Notes: generated by a model from the sequence alone, not told the origin. Shown: positions 6,789 to 64,000, counted from the first letter of the stretch. The stretch: 64,000 nucleotides of DNA from an uncultured virus (IMG/VR IMGVR_UViG_2061766007_000583) (IMGVR_UViG_2061766007_000583); one strand, 5' to 3'. Made by a program: numbers and translations.

Positions 6789-6974
6789 TTATTTATTCGT
6801 ACTTCCAAATCCACCAGTCCTTTCATTATCTGAATTACCATTATCGGCAACAAGATAATTAATAAACATTCCTTGTGCGATTCTATCACCTTTATGGATA
6901 TACTGAACTGTATCGGAAATATTTAATAAGAATATTCCAATATTACCATCGTTGTTAGGATTTTCATAATAATC
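6789..6974 (-). CDS. dut: Trimeric dUTPase, exon 2
   Basis: DYY...GNIG, GDRIAQG and RTGGFGST motifs (III second half, IV, V). Confidence 0.9.
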   Translation of the reverse strand, partial: DYYENPNNDGNIGIFLLNISDTVQYIHKGDRIAQGMFINYLVADNGNSDNERTGGFGSTNK

Positions 6975-8450: not shown

Positions 8451-8770
8451 ATAAACTCCTTTTTCTTTATTCTTTTTATTGTGTGTGGCTAAATAACCTA
8501 AAATACAACTGATTAATACACCAATAGTAGGTATACCTAGCCAAACTAAAATCAATTTAGTAAAATCGTTCATTATATGCCATCTCTATCTTTGAAATAT
8601 ATAAAAACTTTTTCCGACTAATTTCATTAAATTTTCTTTAGTCATTCCGTTCTTCTTCCAGTTCTGTTCTGTGTTCTCTTTCTCTGCGAATTTCAAATAT
8701 AAGATAACAACCTGGATACTCGCAACACAAAGCATCTTCTAAAATATCAAGTTCGTTATCTGAAAAGTCT

Positions 8771-13138: not shown

Positions 13139-13821
13139 TTATTTATAAAATTTATGACCAACTGAATCTTCAAAGATTATGTTTGCATCTCCAAATTTTT
13201 CACTATAACTTCCACTATGAAAGAATAATGCACCATCTGTAGTATCTTCAAACATAAAAGCGTATTCTACTGCTAATACAGTATCTTCTGTTATATTTGT
13301 TCTAAAATAACTAAATTGATTAGGACTAGTAACTACTTCTTTAGGTGTACTAGAAAATCTTTCATTATTAACACGATTTATAATTACATTAGCCACATTT
13401 ACTTTATTTTCAAACGGACAATCATAACATTCTGTTTCTACACATTTTTGAATATAATAAATATCTTCTTCTGTATATACATCATATATACTTAAAGGTT
13501 TACCAAATTCTTCAGAATATTCTTCTTCTATTTCTTTATATAATAAATAATNNNNNNNNNNNNNNNNNNNNNNNNNNNNNNNNNNNNNNNNNNNNNNNNN
13601 NNNNTTGTAATACAAGTTTCCGAAAGTAATTCATTGTATTTTTCTTGATATTCAAGATTTTGAACTCTTAATTCTTCATTCTCTTGGTTTAAAATTATAA
13701 TATCATTTTTTAGTTCTGAAATATCTTTTTTGTATTCACTTGATTTATTTATCATTACAAATATTAAGAATAATATAGTTATATTTGTTAGTGTATATAC
13801 AAATTTATCTTTATCAATCAT
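13139..13821 (-). CDS. SleB/Hydrolase_2-like cell wall hydrolase with N-terminal TM and coiled coil (spans N gap)
   Basis: CVETE, VANVIINRV, QFS, GALFF, GHKFYK; two ORF halves separated by N gap. Confidence 0.8.
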
Positions 13822-17789: not shown

Positions 17790-17861
17790 CTGGGCTAACT
17801 GGATTCGAACCAGTAATCATCGGGTCAAAGCCGATTGCCTTTACCATTTGGCTATAGCCCA
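17790..17861 (-). tRNA. tRNA-Gln (TTG)
   Basis: Cloverleaf: TGGGCTA acceptor, D arm with TGGTA, ATCGG-CTTTGAC-CCGAT, GGTTCGAATCC; no encoded CCA. Confidence 0.93.
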
Positions 17862-17956
17862 CTGTACGCTTTAAGGTAAGCGTATTAACCACACATCGAA
17901 CTTAATTAGCCTATCTTACGATACTAGGTGTGTCCTATTTTGTTCTCCACCTTACT

Positions 17957-18057
17957 TGCCACAGTAGGATTCGAACCTACATTAACATATATGCTCTTAT
18001 ATGTTGAACCTTTATATCATTGGGTTGATGCAAAACTCTTCCATTGAGTTATGTGGC
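17957..18057 (-). ncRNA. tRNA-like RNA with non-canonical anticodon and variable region
   Basis: GCCACA/TGTGGC acceptor, ACTC/GAGT D arm, GTAGG-TTCGAAT-CCTAC T arm; no 7-nt anticodon loop. Confidence 0.65.
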
Positions 18058-18071
18058 AACTTTATAATCAT

Positions 18072-32906: not shown

Positions 32907-33283
32907 TAATTTATACTCCTTAATTTAATACACCATTTATTAATCTCTCGTAAAAAATCTTCCTTTGTTGCATTGCAATCTTCTTTTAATGTTAGCCACA
33001 TTGTATTATTGTAATATTCTAATTTGCAAATATTAGGTATATCAACATTAAAATCATATTCTTTATCAAATCCTATAACTCCATCAAACTTTAAATCTTT
33101 TAATTCTTCTTTATCGTGACCTTCACAACTACAAGTTGTATAATAACCTTTTATATTTAAGGTTTGTATTACAAACAAGATTCCAACATCAACATAAATA
33201 TAACCTTTCCTACATTTGCAAGAACCCTTTAATTGATAACAGTTTCTGCAAATAGGCACTTCGTTATGTTTAGTTAATTGCAT
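32906..33283 (-). CDS. Hypothetical protein, LNxKGYYTxxSCEG family
   Basis: VDVGI...LNIKGYYTTCSCEGH...W. Confidence 0.7.
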   Translation of the reverse strand: MQLTKHNEVPICRNCYQLKGSCKCRKGYIYVDVGILFVIQTLNIKGYYTTCSCEGHDKEELKDLKFDGVIGFDKEYDFNVDIPNICKLEYYNNTMWLTLKEDCNATKEDFLREINKWCIKLRSIN

Positions 33284-35877
33284 TCTTCTGTTTCCTCTTC
33301 TTCAATTATTAATTTATCTACATTAATCGGACAATTATTTTTATCCGTACAATATAAATCATATGTTCTACAAGTTCCTAAATCTATATACTGAAATATT
33401 TTCATATGTTTAGGATATTTACTTGCTCTACCTTTAATAATATGAATTACATTATTGGGTTCTTCTATACCAAAATTTCCCCTTGCTATCTTATCAAATA
33501 TAGGTTTAGTTTGCTCAAGTTCTTTATTTGTAGGCTCAAGCATAATATAAGTTCCATCTGTTTTTCTTATTTGAGATTTACCACCAGCAAGACAAGATTC
33601 ATTAGGATATGCAAGGTTATTTTCATTTCCGTTTGTTTGACAAGAACTTATAAGACCTATTCCATATTTTCTTTGTGTTTGTTTTAATCTATCTGTAAGA
33701 GTTAAAAGCACCATATCTTCTCTTTGTGGTACTTTTGTTTCGTTAGATATTTCTTTTGCTACAAAACCATTATTCTGAACATAATCAAAACAGATATTTT
33801 TAATATTTTTATTTAATACATAATCAGCAATGGTTTCTTGTAAACTTTTTGTAGTAAATTCAGGGTCATCTACAATATATAATTCGCTATCCAATAATAC
33901 TTGAGTAGCATAATCAACTCTTTCTTCTTCTCCTTCTTCATATCTTCCGTCCATAATATGAGAACGTGATACATTAGAAATCCAAGCAATAATCATAGGG
34001 TCAACTTCTCTTCTTAAATCCATTTCAGTATTAATAAATAATCCTGCTCCTACTCTCGATTTGTTTTTAACCCATTGTTTTAATTTAGGGTCATAATATT
34101 CTTTGATTGTTGTTTTACAAAGGTCTCCTATAGATGTAGTAGTATTATGTGTAACAATAAAATCATTTGTTAAATATAAATGTTCTTCATTGTCTACATA
34201 AATACATACCATCTCTTTTTGGTAATCTTCTTTAACAATTTTTCTAATTCCAATTCTATTATAATCTCTTTTTTTATTGAAATTAACTGCTTCTTTGGCT
34301 ATATTTAATTTTCTAGATAATCTAAAGAATTTTTGTTTTTCTGAATTATCAATTGATATATGTAAAATGTAACAAGTTCTTTGTGGTACTTCATTTTTAA
34401 TTCTATCATGTTTTCTAATAGAACAAATATAACCTAAACTTCTTATCACTTCTGCTATATCATTAGCCAAATTTAAACTTGTAGTAGTATATGTAACATT
34501 ATATCTACCACCTTCTACACTTATACTTCCATCGGTGTCAAAAAGACCTTGTAATAAATTAAGTCTTTGTTCTACAGAACCATATTTATATTCATTAGGT
34601 ATTTTCTTTAAATGACTATAAGTGCATATTTCATTTTTGTATTCATTAAATAATTGTTTAGTCTGTAAATATATTCTATTATATTTATTTTCTTCGTTAT
34701 CTTGCTTTTCATCTATAAAATGCCAACTATAATTATAAGGACACTTAATATATTTAGCATTTAATAAATTAGCAACATTTCTAACTTGTTCTTCATCATT
34801 ACTAGATAAAGTTAACATTCTCTCTTTACAACAACCATTACCTATAAAACTACCAATTACATAAGGGTCGATATTGTAATCTTTTTTAGAATATTCTATA
34901 ACTTTATTTGTAGGAATATATACTGTATTAGAAAGTTGCATAATTTCTTTTAATGTATGAGTTATTAATGTGTCTTTATTTTTTCTTTTTTTACTAGTGA
35001 CATCCCAATAACTCCATAAATGTTCATCATTACACTGCGTACTTCTTCCATCTGCTAAAGTTACAGTATAACAATCTAACATTCCTTGTGGAAATACACC
35101 AAGAACTTTAGTGGGTTTTCCAAGTCTATCATATACATAGTCTCCTACTTTAATATCTCCTAGTTTTTTATATCCATTTGGTGTAGGAATTATCGTATCA
35201 ATAGGTTGTGCTTTCCCACCGCCAGATTTTGCAACTCTTAATAAGAAACCATACATACCACGAAATATGCTATTCATATAAGGTGATTGAAAACTTGCCC
35301 CCATTAAAGGTTCTTCCATAAATTCTCTTTTAGTTTCTGCAAAATCGCTCCCAGCCTTATATTCTTCAGCATTATTTTTTACATTAAATTCTCTTTTTAT
35401 TTCTGCTATTTGACCTTCATAATATTCAATGATATCTTTTATTGAATGCTTACTTAATTCTTCAAATGCTTTAGCCGAATCAATATCTTCATTATAAAAC
35501 ATTGAAATATCAAATTTCTTATCTTTATACATAGATAAAAGAGAGAATTTTCTTACTATATCATAATAAACATCATAAGATTCTTCTTTCTTCATTTTTT
35601 TGATGGTTTCAATAAAAGTTATTCCATCATTATCTTCGAATATTGCATACTGTGCTGGGTAATTTTTTAGAAATTCTACAAAATCTTCTTCGTTTAAAGA
35701 CTTTGCTCCACGCTCCTTTAATGTTTTAATTACAACAAATATGATTTTGTCAAATTCTTTACAACGAAAATCATACTTACTTAAAGGGTGCTTTTCATCT
35801 AATAACGATGTATCGTTACATAGTGAGCCTAATACAAATAGTGCTGACGATTCATCATATAACAAATCTAACACCAC
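33274..35877 (-). CDS. dnaB: DnaB-like replicative helicase with intein
   Basis: GTG start; AKSGGGK|TT Walker A after intein removal, FINTEM, FDYVQ, CQ.N, IKGR. Confidence 0.9.
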   Translation of the reverse strand: MVLDLLYDESSALFVLGSLCNDTSLLDEKHPLSKYDFRCKEFDKIIFVVIKTLKERGAKSLNEEDFVEFLKNYPAQYAIFEDNDGITFIETIKKMKKEESYDVYYDIVRKFSLLSMYKDKKFDISMFYNEDIDSAKAFEELSKHSIKDIIEYYEGQIAEIKREFNVKNNAEEYKAGSDFAETKREFMEEPLMGASFQSPYMNSIFRGMYGFLLRVAKSGGGKAQPIDTIIPTPNGYKKLGDIKVGDYVYDRLGKPTKVLGVFPQGMLDCYTVTLADGRSTQCNDEHLWSYWDVTSKKRKNKDTLITHTLKEIMQLSNTVYIPTNKVIEYSKKDYNIDPYVIGSFIGNGCCKERMLTLSSNDEEQVRNVANLLNAKYIKCPYNYSWHFIDEKQDNEENKYNRIYLQTKQLFNEYKNEICTYSHLKKIPNEYKYGSVEQRLNLLQGLFDTDGSISVEGGRYNVTYTTTSLNLANDIAEVIRSLGYICSIRKHDRIKNEVPQRTCYILHISIDNSEKQKFFRLSRKLNIAKEAVNFNKKRDYNRIGIRKIVKEDYQKEMVCIYVDNEEHLYLTNDFIVTHNTTTSIGDLCKTTIKEYYDPKLKQWVKNKSRVGAGLFINTEMDLRREVDPMIIAWISNVSRSHIMDGRYEEGEEERVDYATQVLLDSELYIVDDPEFTTKSLQETIADYVLNKNIKNICFDYVQNNGFVAKEISNETKVPQREDMVLLTLTDRLKQTQRKYGIGLISSCQTNGNENNLAYPNESCLAGGKSQIRKTDGTYIMLEPTNKELEQTKPIFDKIARGNFGIEEPNNVIHIIKGRASKYPKHMKIFQYIDLGTCRTYDLYCTDKNNCPINVDKLIIEEEETEECN
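34144..35211 (-). mobile_element. Class 3 intein (356 aa, Ala-start) with LAGLIDADG endonuclease
   Basis: AQP start, EHLW, MVCIYV, VTHN|T; IGSFIGNG and LQGLFDTDG. Confidence 0.9.
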
Positions 35878-45067: not shown

Positions 45068-46369
45068 TTTTTAAACTCTCCCAATATTTAATAAAATAGC
45101 ACCCAAGTTCACATTCTAAAGTTTCGTTTACAATATAATCTTTAAAGCAAGTATCGTGATTATCACATTTAATACAAGGAATACTATCAAACAATGAATC
45201 AGCGTCGCTTACAACATCACTACAATAAGGACATAATAGAAATTCTTCATATACAGTATGACCCCATGCTTCTGACGGCTCTTTATAAACTTCAACTTCG
45301 TCTTCTTCAATTAATTTCTTACAACCCTTGCAATAATACATATTATATCATATCCTTTCTTAATTGTCAATAGTAAAAAATATTCCTAAACCAACGCCTA
45401 TAATAACGCTGATAATTATTGTTAAAATCAATTCAATAATAAATTTAGTTGTTATAAATTCTGTCAAAAACCAATCCATTGACTTCTCCTAAATCTTCCA
45501 ATATTTCAGGCATATGCTCTTTACCAAAGCCCCAAGATTCATAATCAGAGTGGGTTGGGGTCTTGTACCATATATTAAATGTGTGGGCTTTATGACCCTT
45601 ATTACAAACGCAACAAGGAAAATCTGCATCTGTTCCTAAATAATAGCCAATATGAATATCGCCCCTATCATTAAACTTATACCAATGTCCTTCTTTTAAT
45701 TTCATAATAAAATCCTCCTTTATAAATTCATATTAATTCTTCTTTTATTGAGTCAATAAAATTATAGGCTTCGTCAATCCAATAAAATTCTTCGCACCTA
45801 TCATCGACCCAAACACAATAGCACTCTAAACCACCATATTCGTGATAGTGCTTTTCAATTTCCCAACCTTTATAATATAATAATTCATAGTTATCTTCCA
45901 TTTTCGTTTGCCAACCCCTTTAACATTTCAATATAAATTTGTGAATTATTAGTAAATAATATAAAATTTGGGCGACTATGTTTGTCTGTTCCTACAATTA
46001 AATATTCATTAGTGCCTATAACATCATATACATATCCATAATCTGACCCATCAATAATTACATTATTAGATAGCAAATTATATTTACTAGGATTTGCTGA
46101 AATAAGTTCCCAAATATCATTAATCATATTTTTTAATCCTCATAATCTAAATCTATTAAAAGCCCCATTAACTGATTTAACATATACATTCTTAATTGAG
46201 TTGTGCGTTTCCAATTTTCTGCATCTATTATTTCACAATTAAATAAAAAGTTTTTGTATTCATTTACAATTTCATTGCATTCTCTAACACAGTCTTCAAA
46301 TGTGATACAACCATTATACTGTTTTTCAATTAATTTGTCAATACGTTCTTTAAATTCTTTTAAAATCAT
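45039..46369 (-). CDS. Four small hypothetical proteins (45039-45341, 45445-45705, 45891-46127, 46133-46369)
   Basis: Co-directional ORFs with RBSs; first is Cys-rich. Confidence 0.6.
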
Positions 46370-46404
46370 TTTAAATATACGCTCCTTTCGTATTTGATAA
46401 ACGC

Positions 46405-46485
46405 ATTATATCAAAAAACAAAATATTTGTCAATAGGAAAAAATAAAAAAAATCTATTGACAAGAAAATTTCAATATGATATAAT
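46405..46485. promoter_or_regulatory. Divergent pair of consensus SigA promoters
   Basis: - strand TTGACA(46428-46433)-17-TATAAT; + strand TTGACA(46457-46462)-17-TATAAT. Confidence 0.85.
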
Positions 46486-46516
46486 ATAGAAAAATTCAAG
46501 AAAGGAAATAAAATAA

Positions 46517-46849
46517 ATGGTTGATTGGAGTGGGACACCATATAAAGTAAAACAAGTAATTACTATAGAAATGAATATTAGTAATAAAGATAAACATAAA
46601 GTAATTAATTTGGTTAAGAAGAATTATGAAACAGATGTTGTTATCTTTAAAGATTCAAATCTTATAATTACTAATTTTGGTGAAGGGCGTTTATATCAAG
46701 GCGACTATTGGAATCCAGATGAATACGACGACAACTTATATTATGATGAAGTTGACATAATGCAATTATTAGAAGAACATAATTATGAAGTTATTAATAA
46801 GTGGGAAAAATGCGATTATGAAATAAAAGGAGAAGAGTATGAAGATTAG
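46517..46849 (+). CDS. Acidic hypothetical protein
   Basis: GAAAGG RBS, GDYWNPDEY. Confidence 0.7.
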   Translation: MVDWSGTPYKVKQVITIEMNISNKDKHKVINLVKKNYETDVVIFKDSNLIITNFGEGRLYQGDYWNPDEYDDNLYYDEVDIMQLLEEHNYEVINKWEKCDYEIKGEEYED

Positions 46850-47354
46850 ACCTAAAAGAGATATAGGAAATTTTTACAATTTTGATTGGATTGAAAATTA
46901 TTATAAATGTAATGCTATTAAATTAGAAGATATTCTTAATTATAATTCAACTGAAAGTTTAAAAGCCAATAAGCAATATGAACTCATATGTGAAGGTAGT
47001 GGTTTTTATTTTGTTAAAGGTAAAGATAAAAATGGTAATTGGGAAACATATTTAATTAGAAAGTGTGATGCTGAAGCAATTAGAGATATTGAAGTCAACG
47101 ATAAAGTAATCGTTACTAGCGATGAATTTCAGTATTTATATTATGAACACTTTTTTGAATATAACAAAATTGAAAGTGATTATTTAAAGTTACATTGGGT
47201 TTATGGTAAAAATATTGAAGTTGACGACCATGAATATTATATTGTAAGATACATAGGAAAACATTCGGAGTTCTTAAAACCTGTATATTTGATAGAAAAT
47301 AGGGAAGAAGAAATATATATGATTGGTGGCGAAGGAATTGAGAGAGTAGAGTAA
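46839..47354 (+). CDS. Hypothetical protein
   Basis: Coupled ORF followed by terminator at 47341-47369. Confidence 0.7.
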   Translation: MKIRPKRDIGNFYNFDWIENYYKCNAIKLEDILNYNSTESLKANKQYELICEGSGFYFVKGKDKNGNWETYLIRKCDAEAIRDIEVNDKVIVTSDEFQYLYYEHFFEYNKIESDYLKLHWVYGKNIEVDDHEYYIVRYIGKHSEFLKPVYLIENREEEIYMIGGEGIERVE

Positions 47355-47438
47355 TCTACTCTCTTTTTTGTAAGGTGAGTATGGTTGAAATTAATTGTGG
47401 GTGTGTGATTGTTAACGGCTCAACGCAAACTCGCCGAC

Positions 47439-47452
47439 CGAACACGTGTTCG
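47439..47452. promoter_or_regulatory. Firmicute LexA/DinR-like SOS box
   Basis: CGAACACGTGTTCG matches CGAAC-N4-GTTCG; second CGAACATATGTTTG at 48871. Confidence 0.5.
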
Positions 47453-47462
47453 ATTTTGAAAA

Positions 47463-48792
47463 GTTAGCCCCCACTAACTCACATCTCGTAACCACTCCCC
47501 CACGACACGTAGTATTGAATACTACATATAAAATTTTTTATACTACATATTATCATATTATAATATTGTAAAGTAGTTTTTAATAATAAAAAGTTTTTAG
47601 TAAATCGGAAAAAAGAAAAATTTTATAGTTAGCGATAACTAACTATAATAAAATATTAAAATATTTCTATATGCTTTTATATAGAATACCTTTTAAACGC
47701 ACCAGAACGTCCAAAATTGAAAGAAAATATATAAATTGATAAAATATACCTTTAAAGACTTAAAACGCAATACAGACGAAAATAAGCAAGATTTTTTATT
47801 GATTATACAATTTGCACAAAAAAGATAATAAAAAATATACAAAACGTAGAAAATTAAAAAATATGTGATTTAGTTTACATAACATTATTGACAAGTTTTG
47901 TGTAGGCGTTATAATTGACGTAGTCAATTAAACAAATTGACGGCAACGAAAACAATATTTTATAACACTTTAGGAGGGTAAAGTTATGTTAAGAGAATTA
48001 AGTTTAAACAAGGGTTTTACAGGAAAGAAAGCAACTTGTCAAGTATGTGGAAATGTAGAATTTACAAGCGTTATGACTTCAGCCGATAGCCACAATGACC
48101 ACTGTTTTATATGTGGTGATTGCTATCAAAACGGCGTTGTTTCTACTTCAGGAATGTTTGTCCCTAAAGTTTTTATTGAAAGACAAGCAAAGAAAGACGC
48201 AAAGCACGATTGCCGTGTTTGGTGGGAAGTCACCGAAAGCGATATTAAAAAACGTGCCGAACTTATCGCAATGTATCCTACATTTAGGGCGGTAAATACA
48301 TACGTTTCTACTTCAAAAATAGGTACGTGGCAATTATCCAAAGTCGCCGATAACTACAAAAATGTAGTTGCACACGTTACGAAAGATGGATACAATTTAG
48401 ACGGAACACCCACAGAAATAATAAATGCCGTTCGTGAGATATCAAGCAATCACAACAATTTGACACCGTCAATCATTACAAAATATGGATTTAAAAAAAT
48501 GAGATAAAAAAGGGCTTTAAGCCCTTTTTTTATTTTCTGTTTTTGTTTGTTTTAAGTCCTACAATGTAGGATTTTTTAATATACCTTTAAAACGTCATAT
48601 TTTGACGTGTACGGCGTTTTAATTGCTTTATTGATAAAATATACCATAAACGAAAAAACGTACGAAATAAAGCCAAATTTTGCGTCGGTTATGATAGACT
48701 AACTTTATATACTGGTTAGTCATAACTAACCTATATAGTTTGGTTAGTCAACACTAACCAAAATCTGATATCATAAGTTAGTTATAACTAAC
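47463..48792. repeat. GTTAG-N6-CTAAC palindromic motif, six copies
   Basis: 47463, 47628, 48688 (degenerate), 48715, 48743, 48777. Confidence 0.75.
47986..48507 (+). CDS. Zinc-finger hypothetical protein
   Basis: CQVC...CGDC; AGGAGG RBS; promoter 47888-47915; terminator 48506-48531. Confidence 0.75.
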   Translation: MLRELSLNKGFTGKKATCQVCGNVEFTSVMTSADSHNDHCFICGDCYQNGVVSTSGMFVPKVFIERQAKKDAKHDCRVWWEVTESDIKKRAELIAMYPTFRAVNTYVSTSKIGTWQLSKVADNYKNVVAHVTKDGYNLDGTPTEIINAVREISSNHNNLTPSIITKYGFKKMR

Positions 48793-49167
48793 CAAAATCA
48801 GAATTGAAATCCAAAACCACTTTCACAATTTACCGTGCTAAAGTGTTTCTGATATTCAAATATCAGAAAGCGAACATATGTTTGCCCCAATCCCCCATTA
48901 GGGTAATGCCGTAATGCGAAATTTTAACGGCTTGGCGATTCGCCCTTATGCGTGTGCGTATATGTATATAAGTACATAATTATAGATATATACAGTTAAA
49001 TATAACCGATATAATATTAATATTGAATTATAATTCAAATTCATAATTCAAATTCAATTTTGTAATTGATAATTAGAATTTATATGTATATACGTATATA
49101 CATTTCTGATATTTAAATATCATAATCAAACATAAAATAAAAAGGGTTTTTCAACCCTTTTTATTTT

Positions 49168-49395
49168 TTAAATTTCGTCATAATTTTCAAAATAGCCTAT
49201 TAACTTTTCGCCGTTGTAATAAACTTCAAGATAATCGCCGTTATCGTATTCTACAGAACCGATAAACTTATCAAACAAGGGTGATACTTCATCTTTGTCA
49301 ACAACTTCAACGAATAAATCAAACTCATACATATCAGTATTAACATTGTAAAGTGAATTAACTTCAATAACTTCATTACCTAAAAATTTTTTCAT
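49168..49395 (-). CDS. Cassette gene, acidic hypothetical protein
   Basis: Own promoter, RBS, terminator. Confidence 0.7.
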   Translation of the reverse strand: MKKFLGNEVIEVNSLYNVNTDMYEFDLFVEVVDKDEVSPLFDKFIGSVEYDNGDYLEVYYNGEKLIGYFENYDEI

Positions 49396-50231
49396 AACCT
49401 TAAATTCCTTTCTGTATTCGTGAACCATTTCACAATACTAGAATAACAAAACCCTTTTATGTTGTCAATACATTTTTAAAAAAAATTTTAAAAAATTTTA
49501 TCCGACATAGTTACACTCTGATATTTAAATATCAGAAATTCTGTTTTTGTTTTTGATTTCTGTTTCTGTTTTTAAATTCAAAATCAAATTCAAGTTTGAA
49601 ATCAAATTCAAATTCGAAAATAAAATATATATATTTAAGTTTGAAATCAAAAACAGAATTTATATTCATATTCTAAAATCAAAATTAGAATCCAAAACCA
49701 TATTATATTATTATAAATCATTTAACGGCTCTGTATTGAGTTTAAATATATCAGCCGATAAAAACTACAGTAATAATATTAAAATCAAATATAGGTCAAA
49801 ATAAAGCGTTATTGCTGATATTCAAATATCAGATTGAAATACAATATAAAAAAGGCTTTTCAGCCTTTTTTATATTTCAGCATACACTGTTTTGAAGAGG
49901 ACTTGCAAGGTGAAACATATTTCTGTTAAGGAGTTCTCTTTTAATTCTATTCATAAAAACCTTCTTTCCGACCCTTTAGGTCTAAATCTAAACTATTCGC
50001 AACACGTAAGCATTACCTTACAATAATATAATATCAAATTGCTGATATATTGTCAACAATTTTTTAAAAAATTTTTTACGCCCAATTTTTTTAGTCGGCA
50101 TTTCGCTGTACACCGATATTTAAATATGAGAAGTTTGTTATAATTTTAATAATAAATATTTTAATATTCAAATTTGTTTTTACNNNNNNNNNNAATTAAA
50201 TACAAAAATAAAAAAGGGCAGTTGCCCTTTT

Positions 50232-50609
50232 TTATAAACTGTAAAGATAATTCCAAAACTCTTCGGCTTCTTCGTATGATTTGCCATAGAAATACATTTC
50301 GTGTCCTATATAGGTCTCTTTTTCTCCAAATTTCTCTTCTATTTGATTTTTGAATCCACGAATTACATTAGATACTATATTATCACAAGATTTAACGCAT
50401 TCCTTAACTTCTTCTTCAGTAACAAAACCCAAACGAGAAGCACCATATAAATCGCTATAAATATCGTTGACTTTTCTATCTAATTGAGTAGTAACCAAAT
50501 TCTGTAATTTAATAGCCTTTATTACAGTATCGGCTGAATAAAAATGCTTTTCGAATCTTTCAATTGCTTCGTTTGTTGCAGTGAATAATAATGTTTCAAC
50601 TAATTTCAT
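50232..50609 (-). CDS. Cassette gene, hypothetical protein
   Basis: Own promoter, AAGGAG RBS, terminator. Confidence 0.75.
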   Translation of the reverse strand: MKLVETLLFTATNEAIERFEKHFYSADTVIKAIKLQNLVTTQLDRKVNDIYSDLYGASRLGFVTEEEVKECVKSCDNIVSNVIRGFKNQIEEKFGEKETYIGHEMYFYGKSYEEAEEFWNYLYSL

Positions 50610-51201
50610 AACCTTAATCTCCTTATTAAATAAAAATCTGTTAACGTGTGTTCGTCTTTCGACAATACAATCATATCAAACGGCTACAGTATTGTCAATA
50701 AAAAACTGCACAAAATTTTTAAATTTTTTTGTGCATTCTTGACTGCACTATGTTCGTGTCTGATATTTAAATATCAGAAATATCAAAANNNNNNNNNNTT
50801 CCGTCTTTCGACAATACAATCATATCAAACGGCTATAGTATTGTCAATAAAAAACTGCACAAAATTTTTAAAATTTTTTGTGCAGTTTTGACTGCACTAT
50901 GTTCGTGTCTGATATTTAAATATCAGAAATATCAAAACAGATATGTAAATATCGTATTGTAATTATAAAATCGCCCTTGCGAAATCGTGCGTTGGGTAAT
51001 TCGCTAATCGCCAATCGTTTGCCGACTGCCGAGATATAGTAATGATATAATAGTACATAATATTATATATATACAGTTATATATAACTGATACTGATATT
51101 TAAATATATTTATTCATAAAGCGAAAAATAAAAAGGACTTCGAAATTCGTTTTCGAAATCCTTTTTGAAAGAAGGTAGGTTATGAAAGAAAATTTTACTT
51201 G

Positions 51202-51423
51202 TTAGCCGTTGAATTTGTCGATTACATATCCACCGTCGTGACCTTGTTTCCAATAATGATAAACGCCGTTGGTGTCGTCAAATTCGATATAAATTCCACC
51301 GTCGTCACCATAATCTGCTTGAAAGAAAATCTTTGCGACTTCGAAAGTTCTTCCTTGAGCGTGAATCTTGTCACCGACTTCAACTTCGTGAACAGTCTCG
51401 TAACCGATATTTTTAATAATCAT
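51202..51423 (-). CDS. Cassette gene, hypothetical protein
   Basis: Own promoter, RBS, terminator; YHYWKQ..DGG. Confidence 0.75.
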   Translation of the reverse strand: MIIKNIGYETVHEVEVGDKIHAQGRTFEVAKIFFQADYGDDGGIYIEFDDTNGVYHYWKQGHDGGYVIDKFNG

Positions 51424-51827
51424 ATTTTTATTTCCTTCCTAAAATGTTTTGTTCCCTTTGTTTATCTTACAAACTTATTATATAACATAATAATAAATTT
51501 GTCAATAGTTTTTTGAAAAATTTTTTTTGTTTACTAAAATAAACATTTGTTTGCTTTTTGTTTAAAATATTAAACATTTCTGATATTTAAATATGATAAG
51601 CCTGCTGCCACTTTAGTTAATTAAAGCGTTAAAGTTTACATAAATAGTTTACATAATATAAAAATCTAATTTACTAAAAAATTTGTTTTGAGAGTAAAAA
51701 ATAAAATCTAGATTTAATTTATTCAGATTTAAAATTCAATTTCAAAATTAAATCTGATATTTAAATATCAAAATCGAAATCAAAAATAAAAAACCGAAAT
51801 CATAATTGAAATCGGTTTTTATTTTCG

Positions 51828-52199
51828 TTATGAGCAATAATACAAATCGTCTTCTATCTCTGTTAACTCTGTATCAGTAAACATTCTATGAAGTGCCTTT
51901 GAAGTTTTGCCACATTCTTTATAAATGCTTTTCGCTTCTTCTACACTGTAACCAAATTCATTTGCAAAATTTGTTAAATCTAAAGCGTTATCATATGCTT
52001 CCATATCACCAATTAAGCAATTCATAACTTCTTCTAATTTAGGCATTACATAATCAGTATTACACTGATACTCGAATTTATAACTCTTTCTGTTATAAAT
52101 TATCTTTCCTGCAAAAATAGTGTGATTACTTGTAAACTGTTTACTTTTAGGATTCTCTGCTTCTTCATAACTAAATTTAATCTTGTCTAAAATCATCAT
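51828..52199 (-). CDS. Cassette gene, hypothetical protein
   Basis: P.L..V..CL..D...FANEFGY motif; promoter and terminator. Confidence 0.75.
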   Translation of the reverse strand: MMILDKIKFSYEEAENPKSKQFTSNHTIFAGKIIYNRKSYKFEYQCNTDYVMPKLEEVMNCLIGDMEAYDNALDLTNFANEFGYSVEEAKSIYKECGKTSKALHRMFTDTELTEIEDDLYYCS

Positions 52200-52508
52200 A
52201 ACTTTGTACCTTCCTTTTCTGTTTTTGATTATAACTTATTCTAACATATAAATTTTTTATTGTCAATAGTTTTTTTAAAAAAAATTTAAGCAAAAATTTT
52301 TTACGTTTTATCACTCCGATATTCAAATATCATATTGGTTTACATAATATAATTACAGTTCAACCAACATAAACTGTAATCGTAATATACCTTTTAAAGT
52401 CACCAGAAGCCCCAAATTCGAACGAAAACATATTCTTTGATAAAATATACCTTAAAATAGTTTTCGTTCAAATATGAGCCAAATTTTGCGTTTTAAGACT
52501 ATATCGCC

Positions 52509-52658
52509 CTAGCGATACTCTGAAAAGACTTTTTGTTCATACTCGTCCCAATTCTTCTGCACCTTTGATTCAAGGCATACAACACCAAATATAAAGCATA
52601 AAAGCAATGAAAAGCATATTAAACAAAATTTCACATTCTTAATCTGTTCTTGATTCAT
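52509..52658 (-). CDS. Cassette gene, small TM protein
   Basis: AGGAGG RBS before ATG 52658; hydrophobic helix. Confidence 0.65.
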   Translation of the reverse strand: MNQEQIKNVKFCLICFSLLLCFIFGVVCLESKVQKNWDEYEQKVFSEYR

Positions 52659-52774
52659 AACACGTCCTCCTTTATTAACTAATATAATATTAACATAAAT
52701 ATTATATTTTGTCAAGTATAAAATTAATATTGTCTGATATTTAAATATCAGCGTTTAGTAATAAAAAAAGACCT

Positions 52775-52915
52775 TTAATCAAGGTCTTTCTGCAACTCTC
52801 TTTTAAGTCGTTTTCTGTCGTAATCCTTCGGCGATTTATGAGAGCGTGTTCCAGTGTTAAAGGGTACTAACACTCTATGCTTTTTATTCTTTTCTTTTAA
52901 CTGTTTTTTTGTCAT
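52775..52915 (-). CDS. Cassette gene, 46-aa basic peptide (ArfA/BrfA-like candidate)
   Basis: MTKKQLKEKNKKHRVLVPFNTGTRSHKSPKDYDRKRLKRELQKDLD; AAGGAAGG RBS; absent from ORF track. Confidence 0.7.
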   Translation of the reverse strand: MTKKQLKEKNKKHRVLVPFNTGTRSHKSPKDYDRKRLKRELQKDLD

Positions 52916-53246
52916 TTCTTTTAACCTTCCTTTTAATTAATNNNNNNNNNNNNNNNNNNNNNNNNNNNNNNNNNNNNNNNNNNNNNNNNNNNNNNNNNNN
53001 NNNNNNNNNNNNNNNNNNNNNNNNNNNNNNNNNNNNNNNNNNNNNNNNNNNNNNNNNNNNNNNNNNNNNNNNNNNNNNNNNNNNNNNNNNNNNNNNNNNN
53101 NNNNNNNNNNNNNNNNNNNNNNNNNNNNNNNNNNNNNNNNNNNNNNNNNNNNNNNNNNNNNNNNNNNNNNNNNNNNNNNNNNNNNNNNNNNNNNNNNNNN
53201 NNNNNNNNNNNNNNNNNNNNNNNNNNNNNNNGGGGTTAAAGGGGAT

Positions 53247-53552
53247 TTAGCAATCATAATCATAACAACCCATATAAGGATTAAATCCGATTTCATAATC
53301 ATAGTCGTCATAGTCTTCGATTTCTTCGTCTTCGGTCAATCCTTCAAGTTCATATTGTTCGTGAAAATATGTTTCTTCAAGCATTGCTTTTTCTGTTTCG
53401 TCTGCACATTCTACAAGCATTAAAACGAACAAATAAGCGTTTTCAAAAGTGTCGATTAAATATTCTTCTTCATAGTTGTTAACATTGATTTTAACGCCGT
53501 TTTCTACTCTGTAAATCTCATATTTGTTGCCGTTGATATTAAATTCTTTCAT
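53247..53552 (-). CDS. Cassette gene, acidic protein ending GFNPYMGCYDYDC
   Basis: Promoter, AAGGAG RBS. Confidence 0.75.
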   Translation of the reverse strand: MKEFNINGNKYEIYRVENGVKINVNNYEEEYLIDTFENAYLFVLMLVECADETEKAMLEETYFHEQYELEGLTEDEEIEDYDDYDYEIGFNPYMGCYDYDC

Positions 53553-53729
53553 AGGTTTATCTCCTTTCTTGATAATACAATATTAACATAAAAGGCTTTT
53601 CTTGTCAATATAAAAATTGCACAAATTAAAATTTATTTCGTTATGCATATTTTGGTTTACATAATATTAATTTCTGATATTTAAATATCGGATTTTGGTT
53701 TACATAAAAAAAGACCCTATTGGGTCTTT

Positions 53730-54083
53730 TTAGTATAGCGTTTCGTCGTATCTAACGGCGATTGTTTCATCCATTCTAGCGTGTCCACGCTCAATGGCTT
53801 CGTGTCTGTCTTTAGCACTAGCAAGACAACTCAAGCCGTTCTGTATTAAAAACTCGTTTAAATGTTTCGAAGTGGTTTTAGAATAGTTGTAATCCCTTCC
53901 AAAAGTTACAACTTTTCTAAATCCTAATCCACCTTCAGTGGCGATTTCACATACTCTAGAATCGTATGACTGAAATGCTACATAGGGTTTGTTGGTTACA
54001 TTAGAATTATAATGTAATATAAACTGATTTGCGTTAGCGTTGCCGTTGGCGTTGATTAACTGTGATACTAAAATTTCTGACAT
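53730..54083 (-). CDS. Cassette gene, hypothetical protein
   Basis: NQF...FQSYDS...YSKTTSKH motif. Confidence 0.75.
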   Translation of the reverse strand: MSEILVSQLINANGNANANQFILHYNSNVTNKPYVAFQSYDSRVCEIATEGGLGFRKVVTFGRDYNYSKTTSKHLNEFLIQNGLSCLASAKDRHEAIERGHARMDETIAVRYDETLY

Positions 54084-54268
54084 ATTACTTTTACCTTTCG
54101 AACCTATTTTTATCGGTTCGCCTTTCGTATTTGATAATACAATTATAACATATACATTTTTAAAGTCAATAGTTTTGAGTAAAAAAGTTGCATAAAATTT
54201 TTAAAAGTTTTTGTGCATATTTTATAATATATGATATTTAAATATCAGAAATAAATAATAAAAAATGG

Positions 54269-54472
54269 CTATTTCCATAGCCATTCGTATTCGTCCACGA
54301 GACGCATTTCAAGAACACAATAATAATCATAATCGCCCCAATCACGCTCTTCATAGGCAGATTCCTGCCAACGGCGTAATTCTTCCAAACGCTTCTTATA
54401 TTCGCACATAGCGTTATATGTAGCGTTTGTAAGTGTTGCAGTGATACCTTCAGAAATAATGATAGTCTTCAT
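54269..54472 (-). CDS. Cassette gene, hypothetical protein
   Basis: Promoter, AAGGAG RBS. Confidence 0.7.
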   Translation of the reverse strand: MKTIIISEGITATLTNATYNAMCEYKKRLEELRRWQESAYEERDWGDYDYYCVLEMRLVDEYEWLWK

Positions 54473-54631
54473 AAAATTTATCTCCTTTTTAAATACAATG
54501 TTTTCTTAACTTCTATAATTATAATATCACAATATAATAATTGTGTCAACACTTTTTTAAAAAAAATTTTTAATTTATTTTTAAGTATGATATTTAAATA
54601 TCAGAATAACAAATAAAAAAAAGAAAAGGCT

Positions 54632-54781
54632 TTATTCAGCCTTTTCAATCATTCTTGCTTTTGTAACTTCAGCAACTGCTTTCTGTCTTCTTCTGTACTC
54701 TTCAGCCGTCGGTTTGTTAAACGGCTCTATAACCTTTTCAAATCCTACAATTTTTTTGTTCTCAATAATCGCTCTTGTCAT
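54632..54781 (-). CDS. Cassette gene, 49-aa peptide
   Basis: MTRAIIENKKIVGFEKVIEPFNKPTAEEYRRRQKAV...; AAGGAG RBS; terminator overlaps stop. Confidence 0.65.
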   Translation of the reverse strand: MTRAIIENKKIVGFEKVIEPFNKPTAEEYRRRQKAVAEVTKARMIEKAE

Positions 54782-55033
54782 AATTTTAATCTCCTTTTAA
54801 ATGTTTTGTTTACGTTTAATAAGTTCTTCGTGAGTGTTCATAAAGTTTCCGATTGATTCAACCATTCACCCTATTACTTCCGTTCCCTTATCTTGATTAT
54901 ATATTATCATATTATGATATATAAGTCAATACTTTTTTGAAAAAATATTGCACAATTTTTTTAAAATTTTTTGTGCATATTTTTTATTTATGATATTCAA
55001 ATATCAGAATTGAAAACAAAAAAATAAAAGGGT

Positions 55034-55162
55034 TTACACCCTTTTATAATATTCAAGCCACGTCAAAGCGTTTGTTTCGTCGTCAAGGTCATACAATTCA
55101 ATACCTTCTTTAATCATTTCGTCATAAGTTAAAATGTTTCCGTTCTGTAAATTCATAAACAT
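55034..55162 (-). CDS. Cassette gene, 42-aa acidic peptide
   Basis: MFMNLQNGNILTYDEMIKEGIELYDLDDETNALTWLEYYKRV; AGGAGG RBS. Confidence 0.7.
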   Translation of the reverse strand: MFMNLQNGNILTYDEMIKEGIELYDLDDETNALTWLEYYKRV

Positions 55163-55269
55163 AGGCTTTGCCCTCCTTTATTATGTTATAAGTATAACAT
55201 AATATTATAATATTGTCAAGTATTATTTTTATATTGTCTGATATTTAAATATCATATTTTACGCAAACA

Positions 55270-55490
55270 AAAAAAGCAAACCGAATCTTATTACTGACGT
55301 TTGCTTCTTGTGATAGACCTTGAGTGCATTAGGGGTCTATCGTGGTCTGATTTGCTAGGCTCAAAGCCTACACGCCCAAACGATTTAAAAATCGTTACAC
55401 CCGACCTAAAAGCGTGTCCCAACGGATATTGTATGACTAACAGTCAGTTAAGGGGGACTTCTCATAACTCCTTGCTCCTTTTTTTTATTA
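55270..55490 (-). ncRNA. Cassette expressing a structured RNA with a 5-codon minigene
   Basis: Promoter 55498-55526, AGGAG RBS, ATG AGA AGT CCC CCT TAA, then about 7 hairpins ending in a terminator. Confidence 0.55.
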
Positions 55491-55744
55491 TGTATATATA
55501 ATATCACAATATAAAAACATTGTCAATACTTTTTTTAAAAAAATTTTTTAAAAAAATTTAACGCAATATTTGGCTCTGTATTGCGTTTAATTTAATTAGG
55601 TATAGATTTATACCTAAAATAATATAAAATTAAATGTAGGGCATTCTGTGACGTTTAAAAGGTATTGTATGATTTACTGTATATGTTTTTACAATATATA
55701 AATATGATATTTAAATATCAATTACGAAACAAAAAAATAAGGGA

Positions 55745-56131
55745 TTACTCCCTTATTTCAAATTCCTTGTAATGGTCATATTTGAGTTTAAATACATTCA
55801 AGTCAATTTCTGCATTAACTTCTACACCGATATAACCATCTTTTACATAGGTGGATTTAAACTCCTTGTAAATATCAATCGTTGTCAATTCGTTTAAATT
55901 GAATTTTAAAATTTCTTCAACAAGTTTTTCATTTTTAAATTCTCCAAACAACTGATTGATTAAACTGAATTTTGACATTAAGTCTTCTACATAAAATTCT
56001 AAATCAATACCGTCTTCGCTAATCATTTGTTTTGCTCTTCTTACAATATAATCAATAGGGTCTTCGCTACAATTGATTAATTCGTTAACTTCGATTTCAG
56101 GATAAATATTATACTTGAGTTTTAAATTCAT
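55745..56131 (-). CDS. Cassette gene, hypothetical protein
   Basis: Promoter, AAGGAG RBS. Confidence 0.75.
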   Translation of the reverse strand: MNLKLKYNIYPEIEVNELINCSEDPIDYIVRRAKQMISEDGIDLEFYVEDLMSKFSLINQLFGEFKNEKLVEEILKFNLNELTTIDIYKEFKSTYVKDGYIGVEVNAEIDLNVFKLKYDHYKEFEIRE

Positions 56132-61153: not shown

Positions 61154-61354
61154 ATCTGTTTCCCTCCTTCGATAATACTACTATATCATATTATAATAAA
61201 TTTGTCAATAGTTTTTTTTATTCTTTTTAAAAATTTTTTTATTCGCTTTAAGATAATTTAAAGCGAATAACTGATATTTAAATATCAGAATACAAAATAA
61301 AAAACAGTCGCAAGGCTTTTGACCTCACGACTGCAACAAAGGAAGGTAACAAAA

Positions 61355-61972
61355 TTATGAATAAAAACTTCTCGCTTGATTGAAAAGTTTATTCTGCATA
61401 TTTTCTTTAGTGGGTTTTTCGTTTTCTATTCTAGGTAAACCATAAACCTTGTTAACAAAATTCGGAATTGTAGAATATCTTTTGATAATCTGTTTGTGTA
61501 CTTCGGCTTCTGTTCTTTTATCGTTTGGAATAACCCAATCATTCCAATTTCTATAATAGTCAACGCCTTTATCATTAAGTATTTTAATTTCAAAATTACA
61601 ACTTCCGTCGTGGTGACTGCAATGTACGAACAAGTGTCCGTTTTCGTCATAGATTTTATAATTCCAACAATCTTCAATCATACTGAAAAATGCGTCTTTA
61701 AAATCTCCAAAGATTTTTCCACCACTATAAACGCCGTCCCACCTTCCGATACTACCAAAACAAATTATCTCTTTGTCTTCAAAGAATCTTGATAATTCTT
61801 CAAGTGTGATATCAAAATCCATTGCACAAATATCATAAGCACAATTCTCGATTTCGTCGTCGTCAAATTCTTCTCCACTCTCTTTTAAACATTCTTCTGC
61901 ATCTTTGAAATATACGTCCATATCGTAATTATCAAAGATAATTCTTTCTTTAGCAATAGTGTTCTTTCTCAT
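61355..61972 (-). CDS. Cassette gene, hypothetical protein
   Basis: GRWDG...HHDG motif; GGAGG RBS. Confidence 0.75.
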   Translation of the reverse strand: MRKNTIAKERIIFDNYDMDVYFKDAEECLKESGEEFDDDEIENCAYDICAMDFDITLEELSRFFEDKEIICFGSIGRWDGVYSGGKIFGDFKDAFFSMIEDCWNYKIYDENGHLFVHCSHHDGSCNFEIKILNDKGVDYYRNWNDWVIPNDKRTEAEVHKQIIKRYSTIPNFVNKVYGLPRIENEKPTKENMQNKLFNQARSFYS

Positions 61973-62039
61973 ATAAAAGCCCTCCCTTTTGTTTATATAA
62001 CTATATTACCATACAATGTTTATTTTGTCAAGTACTTTT

Positions 62040-62300
62040 TTAACAATTACACCAAAAATCTTCTTCAACAAAACTTATGTGTCCGTATGCCTTTTCAAGA
62101 ATTGAATAAGGAATATCGTCTGCATAAGATAAATTATTAATAAATTCAACGTCTTCAGCCGATAAATCAAAATCAATATTATCAGAATAAAATAATTCTT
62201 CCTTTAATTGTATTAATTCGTCTTCAGTGCATTCATTTAAACCAAAATAAGTATCTCTCATAATTGTTCTCCCTTCTTGAGTATATACATAGTATATCAT
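62040..62300 (-). CDS. Cassette gene, acidic protein
   Basis: EL..LK...Y....FVEEDF motif; true start may be 62261. Confidence 0.7.
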   Translation of the reverse strand: MIYYVYTQEGRTIMRDTYFGLNECTEDELIQLKEELFYSDNIDFDLSAEDVEFINNLSYADDIPYSILEKAYGHISFVEEDFWCNC

Positions 62301-62419
62301 ATTATGTTTTTCTTGTAAATAGTTTTCAGTAAAATTTTATAAAAAATTTATAATTGTATGATATTTAAATATCAAAATTAATTTCAAAATCTGATATTCA
62401 AATATCATATATTATCCAT

Positions 62420-62985
62420 AAAATAAAAAAGGACTTGTCACCTACCACAAGTCGCTTTTACTTTACATTGTTAACAGTTACAGTTAAAGGGAAAGTATCG
62501 CCACAATACTTTCCCTTTAACTTTTTCTATACCCTATTGTACTTCTAGGCTATAGGTGGCTATGGTTTTATGCTTTTCTTTTACAACCTTGCACGGACAC
62601 CTATCCACTTGGTTGACACGCTTTTTATTCCGTCTAAAAACTCTGTATATCAAAACTGACTCTCTTAACGCAATGTTACGGCACTTTTTATACTAGGTAT
62701 GAAAATATGCGAACAAAATTTCTACCTCTCTTAACGCAATTTTACGATTCGTTTCTCTCGGTCTGTAAACGCAATCAAATCTCTACCTATCTTCACGCAA
62801 TCTTACGCTCATAGGTTTTCACTAGGATATAAAACCTTTAGTAATTAAAATTTCTACCTATCTTTAAGAGTATTATCTATGAGTATTACCATTTTAACAC
62901 TCTAGGCAATATTTACCAACTTTTGGCAGTCAACCTATCTTAACGCAATTTTACGAGAAAAACTATAACGTCTTTTTTATTATGT
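62420..62985 (-). ncRNA. Non-coding cassette with tandem ~33-nt repeats and hairpin spacers
   Basis: Promoter 62990-63018; repeats at 62651, 62714, 62776, 62846 (partial), 62928; 16-bp hairpin 62483-62521; no substantial ORF. Confidence 0.65.
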
Positions 62986-63026
62986 ATTTATTATAACATA
63001 ATCATTTTTATTTGTCAAGTACTTTT

Positions 63027-63386
63027 TTAATAATTTCTTAAATTTATTAAAACTTTTTCGTACTCAACTAAAAACTTATCGTTATCGAAAATATCTTCAA
63101 GGGCAAGTCTTCTCTTATCAGTTAATTTTGTATAGCCGTTTTCTTCCTTGAATTTGTTTTCAAGATATTTTCTACGATTATCAATCAATTCACGTACTGC
63201 ACCACACATAACAGTCTGAAATCTGTAACATTCCCACGTTCTGTTAGAATAGTTACAAGTATGTTTTACCTTTTCAACATTATTAATAAATAATGTTGTA
63301 TCGTGTGCGAATCCGTGTCTAGTGTTTCTGTACTCGTTTACAAATTCATATTCTTTGTCGCCTACAGTAAATTTTTTAATTTCCAT
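63027..63386 (-). CDS. Hypothetical protein (GF.H...NRTWE.Y.FQTV)
   Basis: GGAGG RBS, promoter. Confidence 0.75.
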   Translation of the reverse strand: MEIKKFTVGDKEYEFVNEYRNTRHGFAHDTTLFINNVEKVKHTCNYSNRTWECYRFQTVMCGAVRELIDNRRKYLENKFKEENGYTKLTDKRRLALEDIFDNDKFLVEYEKVLINLRNY

Positions 63387-63420
63387 TTTTGTTCCCTCCT
63401 TTGTTTACTGTAATTATATA

Positions 63421-63648
63421 TTACCACAAATCAAATTCAATGTCAAGATATTTTATTAAATTTGTTAAAATTTCTTTTAAGTCTTCATTATGATAAGGCA
63501 TTGCAGTTTTTATTGCATTATTTGGATTATCTTCTACATAATATATATAGATATATCCGTTATTAATATCAATTTTATCTACAAACTTATATATATCTTT
63601 TAATATATTATTTAAATGATTTAATTCTTTAATAGTAATAATGGTCAT
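63421..63648 (-). CDS. Cassette gene, hypothetical protein
   Basis: Promoter, RBS. Confidence 0.65.
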   Translation of the reverse strand: MTIITIKELNHLNNILKDIYKFVDKIDINNGYIYIYYVEDNPNNAIKTAMPYHNEDLKEILTNLIKYLDIEFDLW

Positions 63649-63838
63649 ATCTTTGTACTTCCTTTCTTTAATCTAAAACTAGAATATCATATAATTTTTA
63701 TTTTGTCAATAAGGAATTTTATATTATCTGATATTCAAATATCAATATAGTTTTGAATATTGTAATATTGAATTTCTGATATTTAAATATCAGAAATTCA
63801 AAACATAAAAAGGAATAGGATTTCCTATTCCCTTTTCA

Positions 63839-64000
63839 TTATCTCCCAGCCTTTGCCTTTAAGTCCAAGAAAGTCTCTTTGTATTTTCGGCACTCTTCGG
63901 CAATATCTTTTATTGTGCTGAAATTGTCCCACTTGCAACCGTCGGCAGTATAGACAGTATATTCGTTTACTACTCTGCCTTTACGAACTGAATAATAGCA
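63839..64000 (-). CDS. 3' part of a cassette gene cut by window edge
   Basis: Open frame CYYSVRKGRVVNEY...AKAGR*, terminator at 63808-63836. Confidence 0.6.
   Translation of the reverse strand, partial: CYYSVRKGRVVNEYTVYTADGCKWDNFSTIKDIAEECRKYKETFLDLKAKAGR

Follow-up and report, generated by a model that had tools for sequence, protein, structure and literature searches.

Genomic setting of the locus

The window, the whole 64,000-nt stretch of DNA that was analysed, has a G+C content of 27%, and its - strand carries nearly all genes. These encode a DNA polymerase III alpha subunit, a DnaB-like helicase with a LAGLIDADG insert, NrdD, two DNA methylases, a holin and a GH25 lysin, as well as a RecD-like helicase (1092 aa) that is 42% identical to its counterpart in Enterocloster phage PMBT24. 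Gene content and the PMBT24-like helicase indicate that the source is a large phage of Clostridia-type hosts, of the gut or rumen. The DnaB-like helicase ORF (33274-35877) contains a LAGLIDADG homing-endonuclease segment at residues ~426-508, probably an intein. Two ORFs at 6789-8573 weakly match the halves of a dUTPase on either side of an HNH endonuclease ORF (7277-8197), and this dUTPase gene may be split or intron-interrupted. Moreover, Rfam reports a second tRNA at 17956-18058 (43 bits, 103 nt), adjoining tRNA-Gln at 17790-17861 and absent from the ARAGORN output, which may contain an intron or a long insert.

Between ~46 and 64 kb, a succession of small genes without assigned function is found, each preceded by a strong sigma-70-type promoter. 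At 46300-46490, 12/12 consensus promoters stand back-to-back where the gene strand switches. The region 46000-56000 contains 17 terminator-like sites against 2.7 expected, and three stretches of 300-830 nt lacking an ORF of at least 50 aa (47355-47985, 48508-49167 and 54473-55300) may hide small genes or RNAs. The locus described here sits in this early-gene region, amid small early genes. Downstream of it lies a gene (62040-62261) with its own promoter, the product of which is a very acidic protein of 73-86 aa, rich in D and E. This gene is conserved in the two relatives described below, and its product has no match in Pfam or PHROG. Anti-defence loci often include very acidic proteins, and a role in DNA mimicry or anti-restriction is conceivable for this one.

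The transcription unit

The locus is bounded by the following features:

62425-63018, - strand: transcription unit, from promoter to intrinsic terminator
62990-63018, - strand: promoter TTGACA-17-TATAAT with TG extension, 12/12 consensus matches
62425-62453, - strand: intrinsic terminator with a covarying 7-bp stem and conserved loop GUAGGU, followed by a U run
62357-62409, no strand assigned: inverted repeats of type TGATATTTAAATATCA, between the RNA terminator and the next promoter, outside the RNA

The sequence-only reading of this DNA had proposed a non-coding RNA made of repeated units and running from a promoter to a terminator, and this description was borne out and is kept in relatives. 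The consensus promoter claimed at 62990-63018 is present and of sigma-A type, with TTGACA, a 17-nt spacer and TG-TATAAT matching at 12 of 12 positions, and transcription would start near 62983. The terminator-like hairpin was also found, at 62453-62432, with a T run after it. The claim that about 550 nt lack a substantial ORF holds as well, there being no ORF of at least 50 aa in 62301-63026. A 39-aa frame (62653-62534) is not conserved, since gaps of 2 nt and 4 nt in one relative (L014) break it. Short peptides probably do not explain the repeats: mini-frames started by UUG or AUG occur in some modules and are absent from module 1b and from the L008-4 module, and their length differs between orthologous modules (15 codons in module 2 vs 6 in L008-3). 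The predicted fold of the whole RNA has an energy of -142.8 kcal/mol vs -111.3 +/- 4.9 for shuffled sequences (z = -6.39), a value reached by 0 of 100 shuffles. The interval 62425-62983 on the - strand is thus a gene for a non-coding RNA of ~560 nt.

The TGATATTTAAATATCA-type inverted repeats at 62357-62409 are likely operator sites. Paired palindromes of this type stand directly upstream of early promoters both here and at 63718-63803, and are kept in relatives (L008 ~2180-2260; L014 ~1060-1115). They are probably operators through which a phage repressor would silence early genes.

Relatives of the RNA

An exact-pattern scan of metagenome contigs returned 8 loci, 2 of which (L008 and L014) are homologues and 6 chance matches. 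In both homologues the gene order is the same as in the window, namely a 75-aa gene, a 119-aa gene, the RNA, the small acidic gene and a ~200-aa gene, and each RNA is preceded by its own consensus promoter and ended by its own terminator. It can be observed that the 3' half is alignable along its full length among the three loci, that the number of modules in the 5' half varies from 3 to 5, and that orthologous modules are ~82-86% alike, as counted on the alignments. In the window, the modules run 1a-insert-1b, 2, 3 and last repeat. In L008, the order is 3, a unique module (x), then the homologues of 2 and 1b, then the last repeat, while L014 has fewer modules than the window, 1a-insert-1b and a fused remnant. 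Such shuffling of module order and number fits autonomous, redundant units.

Other collections gave no further homologue. Among INPHARED phages there was no blastn match for the RNA and no tblastn match for the 205-aa neighbour; the 119-aa neighbour matched Flavobacterium phages only (10 records, tblastn), which offered no common gene order to follow. In IMG/VR, three of the search patterns had 0 matches and the fourth yielded 32 loci with 0 homologues. The 205-aa protein had no relative there, and two IMG/VR loci found by protein (L001 and L002) are without the RNA. Among genome contigs of 185,579 species, one genome per species, 4 single pattern matches and no array were found, and these 4 were judged to be chance matches; ~17 would be expected by chance (estimate). 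BLAST of the RNA against 399 genomes of one Clostridia class gave a best E of 2.3e-4, and the top 10 matches were short and lay in unrelated genes.

The comparison with Rfam 15 proposed in the sequence-only reading produced no match at the locus to any antitoxin, CRISPR-DR or other RNA family: at E <=10, 61500-64000 gave only chance rows for microRNAs and small RNAs, and a search of the entire window at gathering score returned just 2 rows, both tRNA. Possible likenesses to Cas9 tracrRNA, to Cas12a and Cas13d repeats, and to preQ1-I, PyrR sites, Hfq AG-repeat sites and the 23S GTPase centre are not relied on; those of these families present in Rfam gave no match. The literature found on RNA anti-CRISPRs, an sgRNA-mimicking phage RNA, pseudo-ToxI, ROOL/GOLLD and phage K lncRNAs contains nothing resembling the RNA. 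Taken together, the locus is a genuine phage gene for a structured non-coding RNA, which is conserved and belongs to a new family.

The conserved 3' domain

The 3' half forms a domain of ~230 nt. It starts with a core of 78 nt that hardly varies, followed by three hairpins, the last of which is the terminator given above. The other parts are:

62556-62633, - strand: 78-nt core, with an ACGGA...UCCGU helix, an inner hairpin with C[CAA]G apex, an A-rich linker and GCCAC
62527-62555, - strand: hairpin A, covarying 10-bp stem and conserved loop GAAGUACAA
62482-62522, - strand: hairpin B, perfect 17-bp stem and conserved loop UGUGGCG

Between the window, L008 and L014, identity of the core is 99%, 93% and 93%. 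For the flanking genes the corresponding values are 69-77% (119-aa gene) and 63-68% (downstream gene), and the stems of the 3' hairpins are 57-65% identical. RNAalifold predicted 62 pairs for the domain, 17 of which are changed on both sides with pairing kept. These 17 fall in hairpin A, hairpin B and the terminator, and the loops are identical in all three loci. In hairpin A, 8 of the 10 pairs show such a two-sided change in one locus or more. The stem of hairpin B measures 10-12 bp in relatives. The perfect hairpin reported earlier is present, but its length in the window is 17 bp (62482-62498 with 62506-62522) rather than 16. Within the core, L014 carries CAGCC...GGCUG in place of CAACC...GGUUG, a change compatible with either of two mutually exclusive helices. 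The check for covariation in related phages thus succeeded for the three 3' hairpins (17 pairs) but not for the module hairpins (1 pair), and its statistics are thin because it rests on three full sequences. Furthermore, G-U pairs are held in the - strand reading only, as with the U-G pair in every mini-hairpin of the modules, which favours an RNA of the - strand. To judge from these alignments, the 3' domain, which the sequence-only reading had missed, is the best structural evidence for the RNA. The extreme conservation of the core exceeds the need of a simple sponge and hints at a more specific role.

Such exact loops (GAAGUACAA, UGUGGCG and GUAGGU), kept on three covarying stems, are also what would be seen if the RNA were architectural or self-assembling in the manner of ROOL and GOLLD, with the loops acting as tertiary or intermolecular contacts. 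GUAC in the loop of hairpin A is self-complementary, GCCAC at 62560-62556 is complementary to the loop of hairpin B, and the length of ~560 nt and the phage setting resemble ROOL. We consider this reading unlikely. Neither ROOL, GOLLD nor any other Rfam family matched; a variable number and order of modules is poorly compatible with one fixed global fold; and since the loops are invariant, the putative contacts receive no covariation test.

The loops and the repeat motif could instead act through base pairing, the RNA being a regulator or sponge for another RNA. Repeated exposed motifs, the U tail of the terminator and the A-rich conserved linker would suit such a function, and loop A shares 9 identical nt with the leader of the 75-aa gene at 63661. 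The chance expectation for a 9-mer is, however, ~0.5 in 128 kb (estimate), the rest of the window has no site complementary to the loops or to the repeat motif, and the search of the 399 Clostridia genomes gave short chance matches only. A base-pairing role is accordingly rated slightly below the architectural one, as rather improbable.

The repeat modules of the 5' half

In the 5' half, modules of ~60-77 nt follow one another, each made of a 33-nt conserved element and, after it, a differing AU-rich segment. In the direction of transcription these are:

62923-62955, - strand: repeat element of module 1, mini-hairpin CGUA-N4-UGCG at 62944-62955, then UUAAGAUAGGU
62867-62924, - strand: insert inside module 1, which L014 alone shares, with AAAAGUUGGUAAAUAUUGCCUAGAGUGUUAAAA at 62924-62892
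62808-62870, - strand: module 1b, partial repeat 62846-62864 and AU-rich hairpin 62837-62813 with CCUAG apex
62747-62807, - strand: module 2, repeat 62775-62807 and hairpin 62771-62750 with apex ACCGAG
62681-62746, - strand: module 3, repeat 62714-62746 and hairpin 62710-62681 with apex ACCUAG
62634-62680, - strand: last repeat element, repeat 62648-62680, leading into the 3' domain

The 33-nt elements are 81-93% alike, and likeness between modules is limited to these 33 nt, which contain the mini-hairpin CGUA-N4-UGCG and the purine-rich stretch UUAAGAKAGGUAGAAAUUUU. A 27-nt repeat family has 4 copies (62655-62681, 62721-62747, 62782-62808 and 62930-62956; 81-100% identity), and the partial copy at 62847-62864 was found through an 18-nt family. 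All 5 copies are detected at <=10/33 mismatches, and a 23-nt core pattern has 3 matches at <=3 mismatches vs 0 in 100 shuffles. The four full or near-full copies and one partial copy claimed earlier are therefore confirmed by the two families beyond chance. For the spacing, given earlier as 61-82 nt, the lower bound stands but the upper does not, the measured start-to-start distances being 77, 71, 61 and 66 nt. The spacers contain CCTAG or ACCGAG, as claimed.

The structures proposed for the spacers fared less well. The spacer hairpins fold no better than shuffled sequences, with z values of -0.89, +0.79, -1.15, -0.61, -1.70, -1.13 and +0.23 for 7 units, and compensatory change between orthologous units amounts to 1 pair in all, a G-C to U-A change against L008 in the hairpin of module 1b. 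One orthologous module pair folds better by an alternative pairing of GGUAGAAA with UUU.UACC. The proposed CCTAG/TAGG pseudoknot is likewise weak overall, the fractions of shuffles per unit being 0.29, 0.21, 0.97, 0.86, 0.017, 0.041, 0.126 and 0.24. Pairing of UAGGU with ACCUA is possible in most modules and broken in L008-4. In L008-2 it is replaced by AUGUU with AACAU, which looks like covariation. The helix of the module 1 insert (62903-62895 with 62875-62867) keeps its pairing in L014, and a C-G pair in the mini-hairpin of the last repeat is U-A in L014.

The array has also to be considered against CRISPR, as the RNA could be a decoy in the form of a mini-array, an RNA anti-CRISPR or a mimic of tracrRNA or sgRNA. 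The period of repeat plus spacer, ~61-71 nt, is similar to that of CRISPR arrays; phage RNA anti-CRISPRs have been described (PMC10651486), as has a phage RNA that mimics an sgRNA (preprint 10.64898/2026.06.03.729762). The repeats, however, are diverged (81-93% alike) and not identical as in CRISPR, and the "spacers" are conserved between phages, contrary to CRISPR. No CRISPR-DR or tracrRNA match appeared in Rfam at E <=10, the genomes of the 185,579 species hold no array of this repeat, and the 3' domain contains no anti-repeat, since 49, 193, 151 and 101 of 200 shuffles pair equally well. The Pfam scan of 103 ORFs of the window revealed no toxin, cas or reverse-transcriptase gene, although a mimic would not need cas genes nearby. 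The earlier suggestion of an RNA anti-CRISPR or mini-array thus finds diverged repeats, conserved "spacers", no anti-repeat and no cas gene, and is regarded as very improbable, the least credible of the readings weighed here.

Comparison with type III antitoxins

The sequence-only reading had also suggested a mimic of type III antitoxins. In phage PhiTE, a defence ribonuclease is diverted by the decoy pseudo-ToxI (PMC3475682; PMC5086642), and the unit of a type III antitoxin is an H-type pseudoknot with single-stranded tails on either side (PMC5086642). The RNA might in the same way neutralise host endoribonucleases of the ToxN/CptN type, its modules, or the ToxI-like stretches 62924-62892 and 62626-62598, binding the toxin as H-type pseudoknots; as a specific claim, we hold this to be unlikely.

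For comparison, ToxI repeats were taken from 42 ToxN loci. Repeats of 33-39 nt lie upstream of ToxN in the sampled Clostridia genomes, and twelve plasmid ToxN loci of many taxa contributed 11 further repeat types, one of which we take to be the 36-nt unit of Pectobacterium ToxI. The Clostridia ToxI arrays (L015-L044) have a common frame of A-run, GCGGUG, NNCC, UACC, N2-5, AAGUGG, NNN and A-run, and several loci (e.g. L015, L019 and L027) combine clearly different units within one array.

The architecture of promoter, repeats and terminator is antitoxin-like, ToxN (PF13958) is common in the likely host class, with 31 carriers among 400 genomes sampled from a single class of Clostridia-type MAGs, and the repeat motif and loop of L008-2 change together (AUGUU/AACAU). 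When local alignment was made lenient, one ToxI unit placed the RNA at rank 1 of 12788 windows and two others placed it at rank 4, and by mean z of ToxI likeness it ranked 1 of 668 window segments, with z > 2 for 9 of 16 queries. The module 1 insert shows a weak likeness to one ToxI unit. It should be noted, however, that this likeness is largely one of composition, because 18 of 300 dinucleotide-shuffled versions of the RNA have a mean score as high, and that no single query is significant after correction for 27 queries. Strict local alignment to ToxI repeats stays at shuffle level, nhmmer with a Clostridia ToxI repeat profile found no match in the RNA, and for the eleven plasmid ToxI types the ranks lie between 6 and 2863. 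In addition, real ToxI arrays consist of head-to-tail units of 31-39 nt without spacers, whereas the units here measure 61-77 nt and have differing inserts; no toxin gene, which a phage mimic would not require, follows the RNA, and Pfam found no ToxN in the 103 ORFs; and the module pseudoknot is not above chance overall and is broken in L008-4. With no Rfam match, no profile match and no significant alignment likeness, the antitoxin-mimic idea gains no support from these tests and keeps a low probability.

Presence in an RNA library

Expression data came from one bovine metatranscriptome in the form of contigs, which do not show strand, ends or level and may include DNA carry-over. The region 61300-63700 was searched and 4 contigs were found, all within 62515-63081 (7 of 30 bins); the uncovered parts of this region are not evidence of silence. 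One contig of 172 nt is identical over 62588-62759. Another joins 62617 to 62787 through 41 other letters and represents another module arrangement, and a third covers 62576-62627 with 4 differences before it diverges, indicating a further relative. The RNA family is therefore present in an RNA library, and the confinement of the contigs to the unit hints at abundance of the RNA.

This confinement also bears on the alternative that the locus acts as a DNA-level element, with the 33-bp repeats serving as protein-binding sites, such as origin iterons or regulator sites, and the hairpins forming in single-stranded DNA. The locus is repeat-rich, AT-rich and non-coding and lies next to operator-like palindromes. 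Two of the 4 genome matches, in two Clostridia MAGs, are a conserved promoter region with direct repeats spaced by ~11 bp before an ABC-transporter gene. The RNA-library contigs, however, are restricted to the unit within the region searched, the consensus promoter and the covarying terminator bound the element exactly, and G-U pairs are kept in the - strand reading only. Moreover, the repeat spacing of 61-77 bp is unphased, there is no GC-skew switch at the locus, and the 4 matches among genomes fall below the ~17 expected by chance (estimate). Such a DNA-level role is judged highly improbable, if not quite as remote as a CRISPR-related one. As to the two MAG loci themselves (L005 and L006, ~2440-2560), they have in common the promoter region upstream of an ABC-transporter ATPase gene, in which the direct repeats CGTAAGA / CGTTAAGA / CGTAATG, ~11 bp apart, are like a response-regulator site; the pattern match is due to chance.

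Proposed function

Our tentative preference, held at somewhat less than even confidence, is that the RNA is a multi-site decoy that titrates an RNA-binding host factor. This is thought the most likely reading from the early consensus promoter, the redundant and variable modules, the constrained 3' domain and the small early neighbours. Among the options named in the sequence-only reading, a sponge for an RNA-binding protein appears to be the most plausible: one RNA carries 4-5 redundant copies of the motif, the number and order of which vary between relatives. According to the proposed mechanism, the RNA would be made in bulk early in infection, and its redundant, order-independent modules would each present the same single-stranded motif to the putative RNA-binding host factor, which would thereby be titrated. 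The invariant 3' domain may stabilise the RNA or may bind a second, highly conserved partner. Defence ribonucleases, for example type III toxins, would be the leading candidates for the titrated factor.

A more elaborate form may be envisaged, in which the RNA is a polyvalent anti-defence cassette. The diverged modules would be decoys, each for a different host RNA-binding defence nuclease (e.g. non-cross-reacting type III toxins), and would be exchanged, reordered and amplified between phages on an invariant 3' domain that anchors or stabilises them, or itself disarms one conserved host machine. This proposal is speculative and stands on a par with the base-pairing role in its low probability.

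Large structured phage RNAs are few and mostly without assigned role. A core kept at 93-99% while the neighbours drift to 63-77%, together with modules that shuffle, is as expected of an arms-race element. If the RNA is a decoy, phages of Firmicutes from the gut and rumen, a little-known area, would gain an example of counter-defence by RNA, and the RNA would point to its target. If it is not, it represents an orphan RNA with a new fold, of a size suited to structure probing and cryo-EM.

Comparison with known systems

Sponges of the CsrB/RsmZ type carry many copies of a short motif per RNA, variable in number between relatives, with GGA in hairpin loops. The RNA described here is similar in that a single RNA bears a repeated motif with a copy number that varies between relatives. 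It differs in its motif, which is UAGGUAGAAAUUUU-like and not GGA in hairpin loops, and in its phage origin.

With ToxI and pseudo-ToxI, the RNA has in common that a promoter drives a repeat RNA with a terminator at its end, that its units may form a pseudoknot, and that the motifs ACC-N-AGUG, GGU and A runs occur in both. In ToxI, however, near-identical units lie next to a toxin gene, whereas here diverged elements are joined to a conserved domain of 230 nt and no toxin gene is present.

Racr and rAcrIIA1 are phage RNAs that mimic a host guide RNA and soak up the effector (PMC10651486; 10.64898/2026.06.03.729762). Like them, the RNA is intergenic and promoter-driven, as phage small RNAs of this kind are; unlike them, it shows no likeness to the tested CRISPR repeat and tracrRNA families, no anti-repeat and no genomic array.

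Among the larger RNAs, ROOL, GOLLD and OLE form homo-oligomers (PMC12286853), and phage K produces abundant early long non-coding RNAs without an assigned role (PMC9241854). The 3' end of phage K lnc001 (L087 333-469; NC_005880.2 ~13632-13768) scores 43.4 bits against Rfam DUF3800-I, for which the gathering score is 44.2. The present RNA is like ROOL/GOLLD and phage K lnc001/lnc002 in being large (~0.5-0.8 kb), structured and phage-borne. It departs from ROOL/GOLLD in having no sequence or covariance-model match to them and in not adjoining tRNA genes, and from phage K lnc001, a region unrelated in sequence and without such repeats, in the modular array that it carries.
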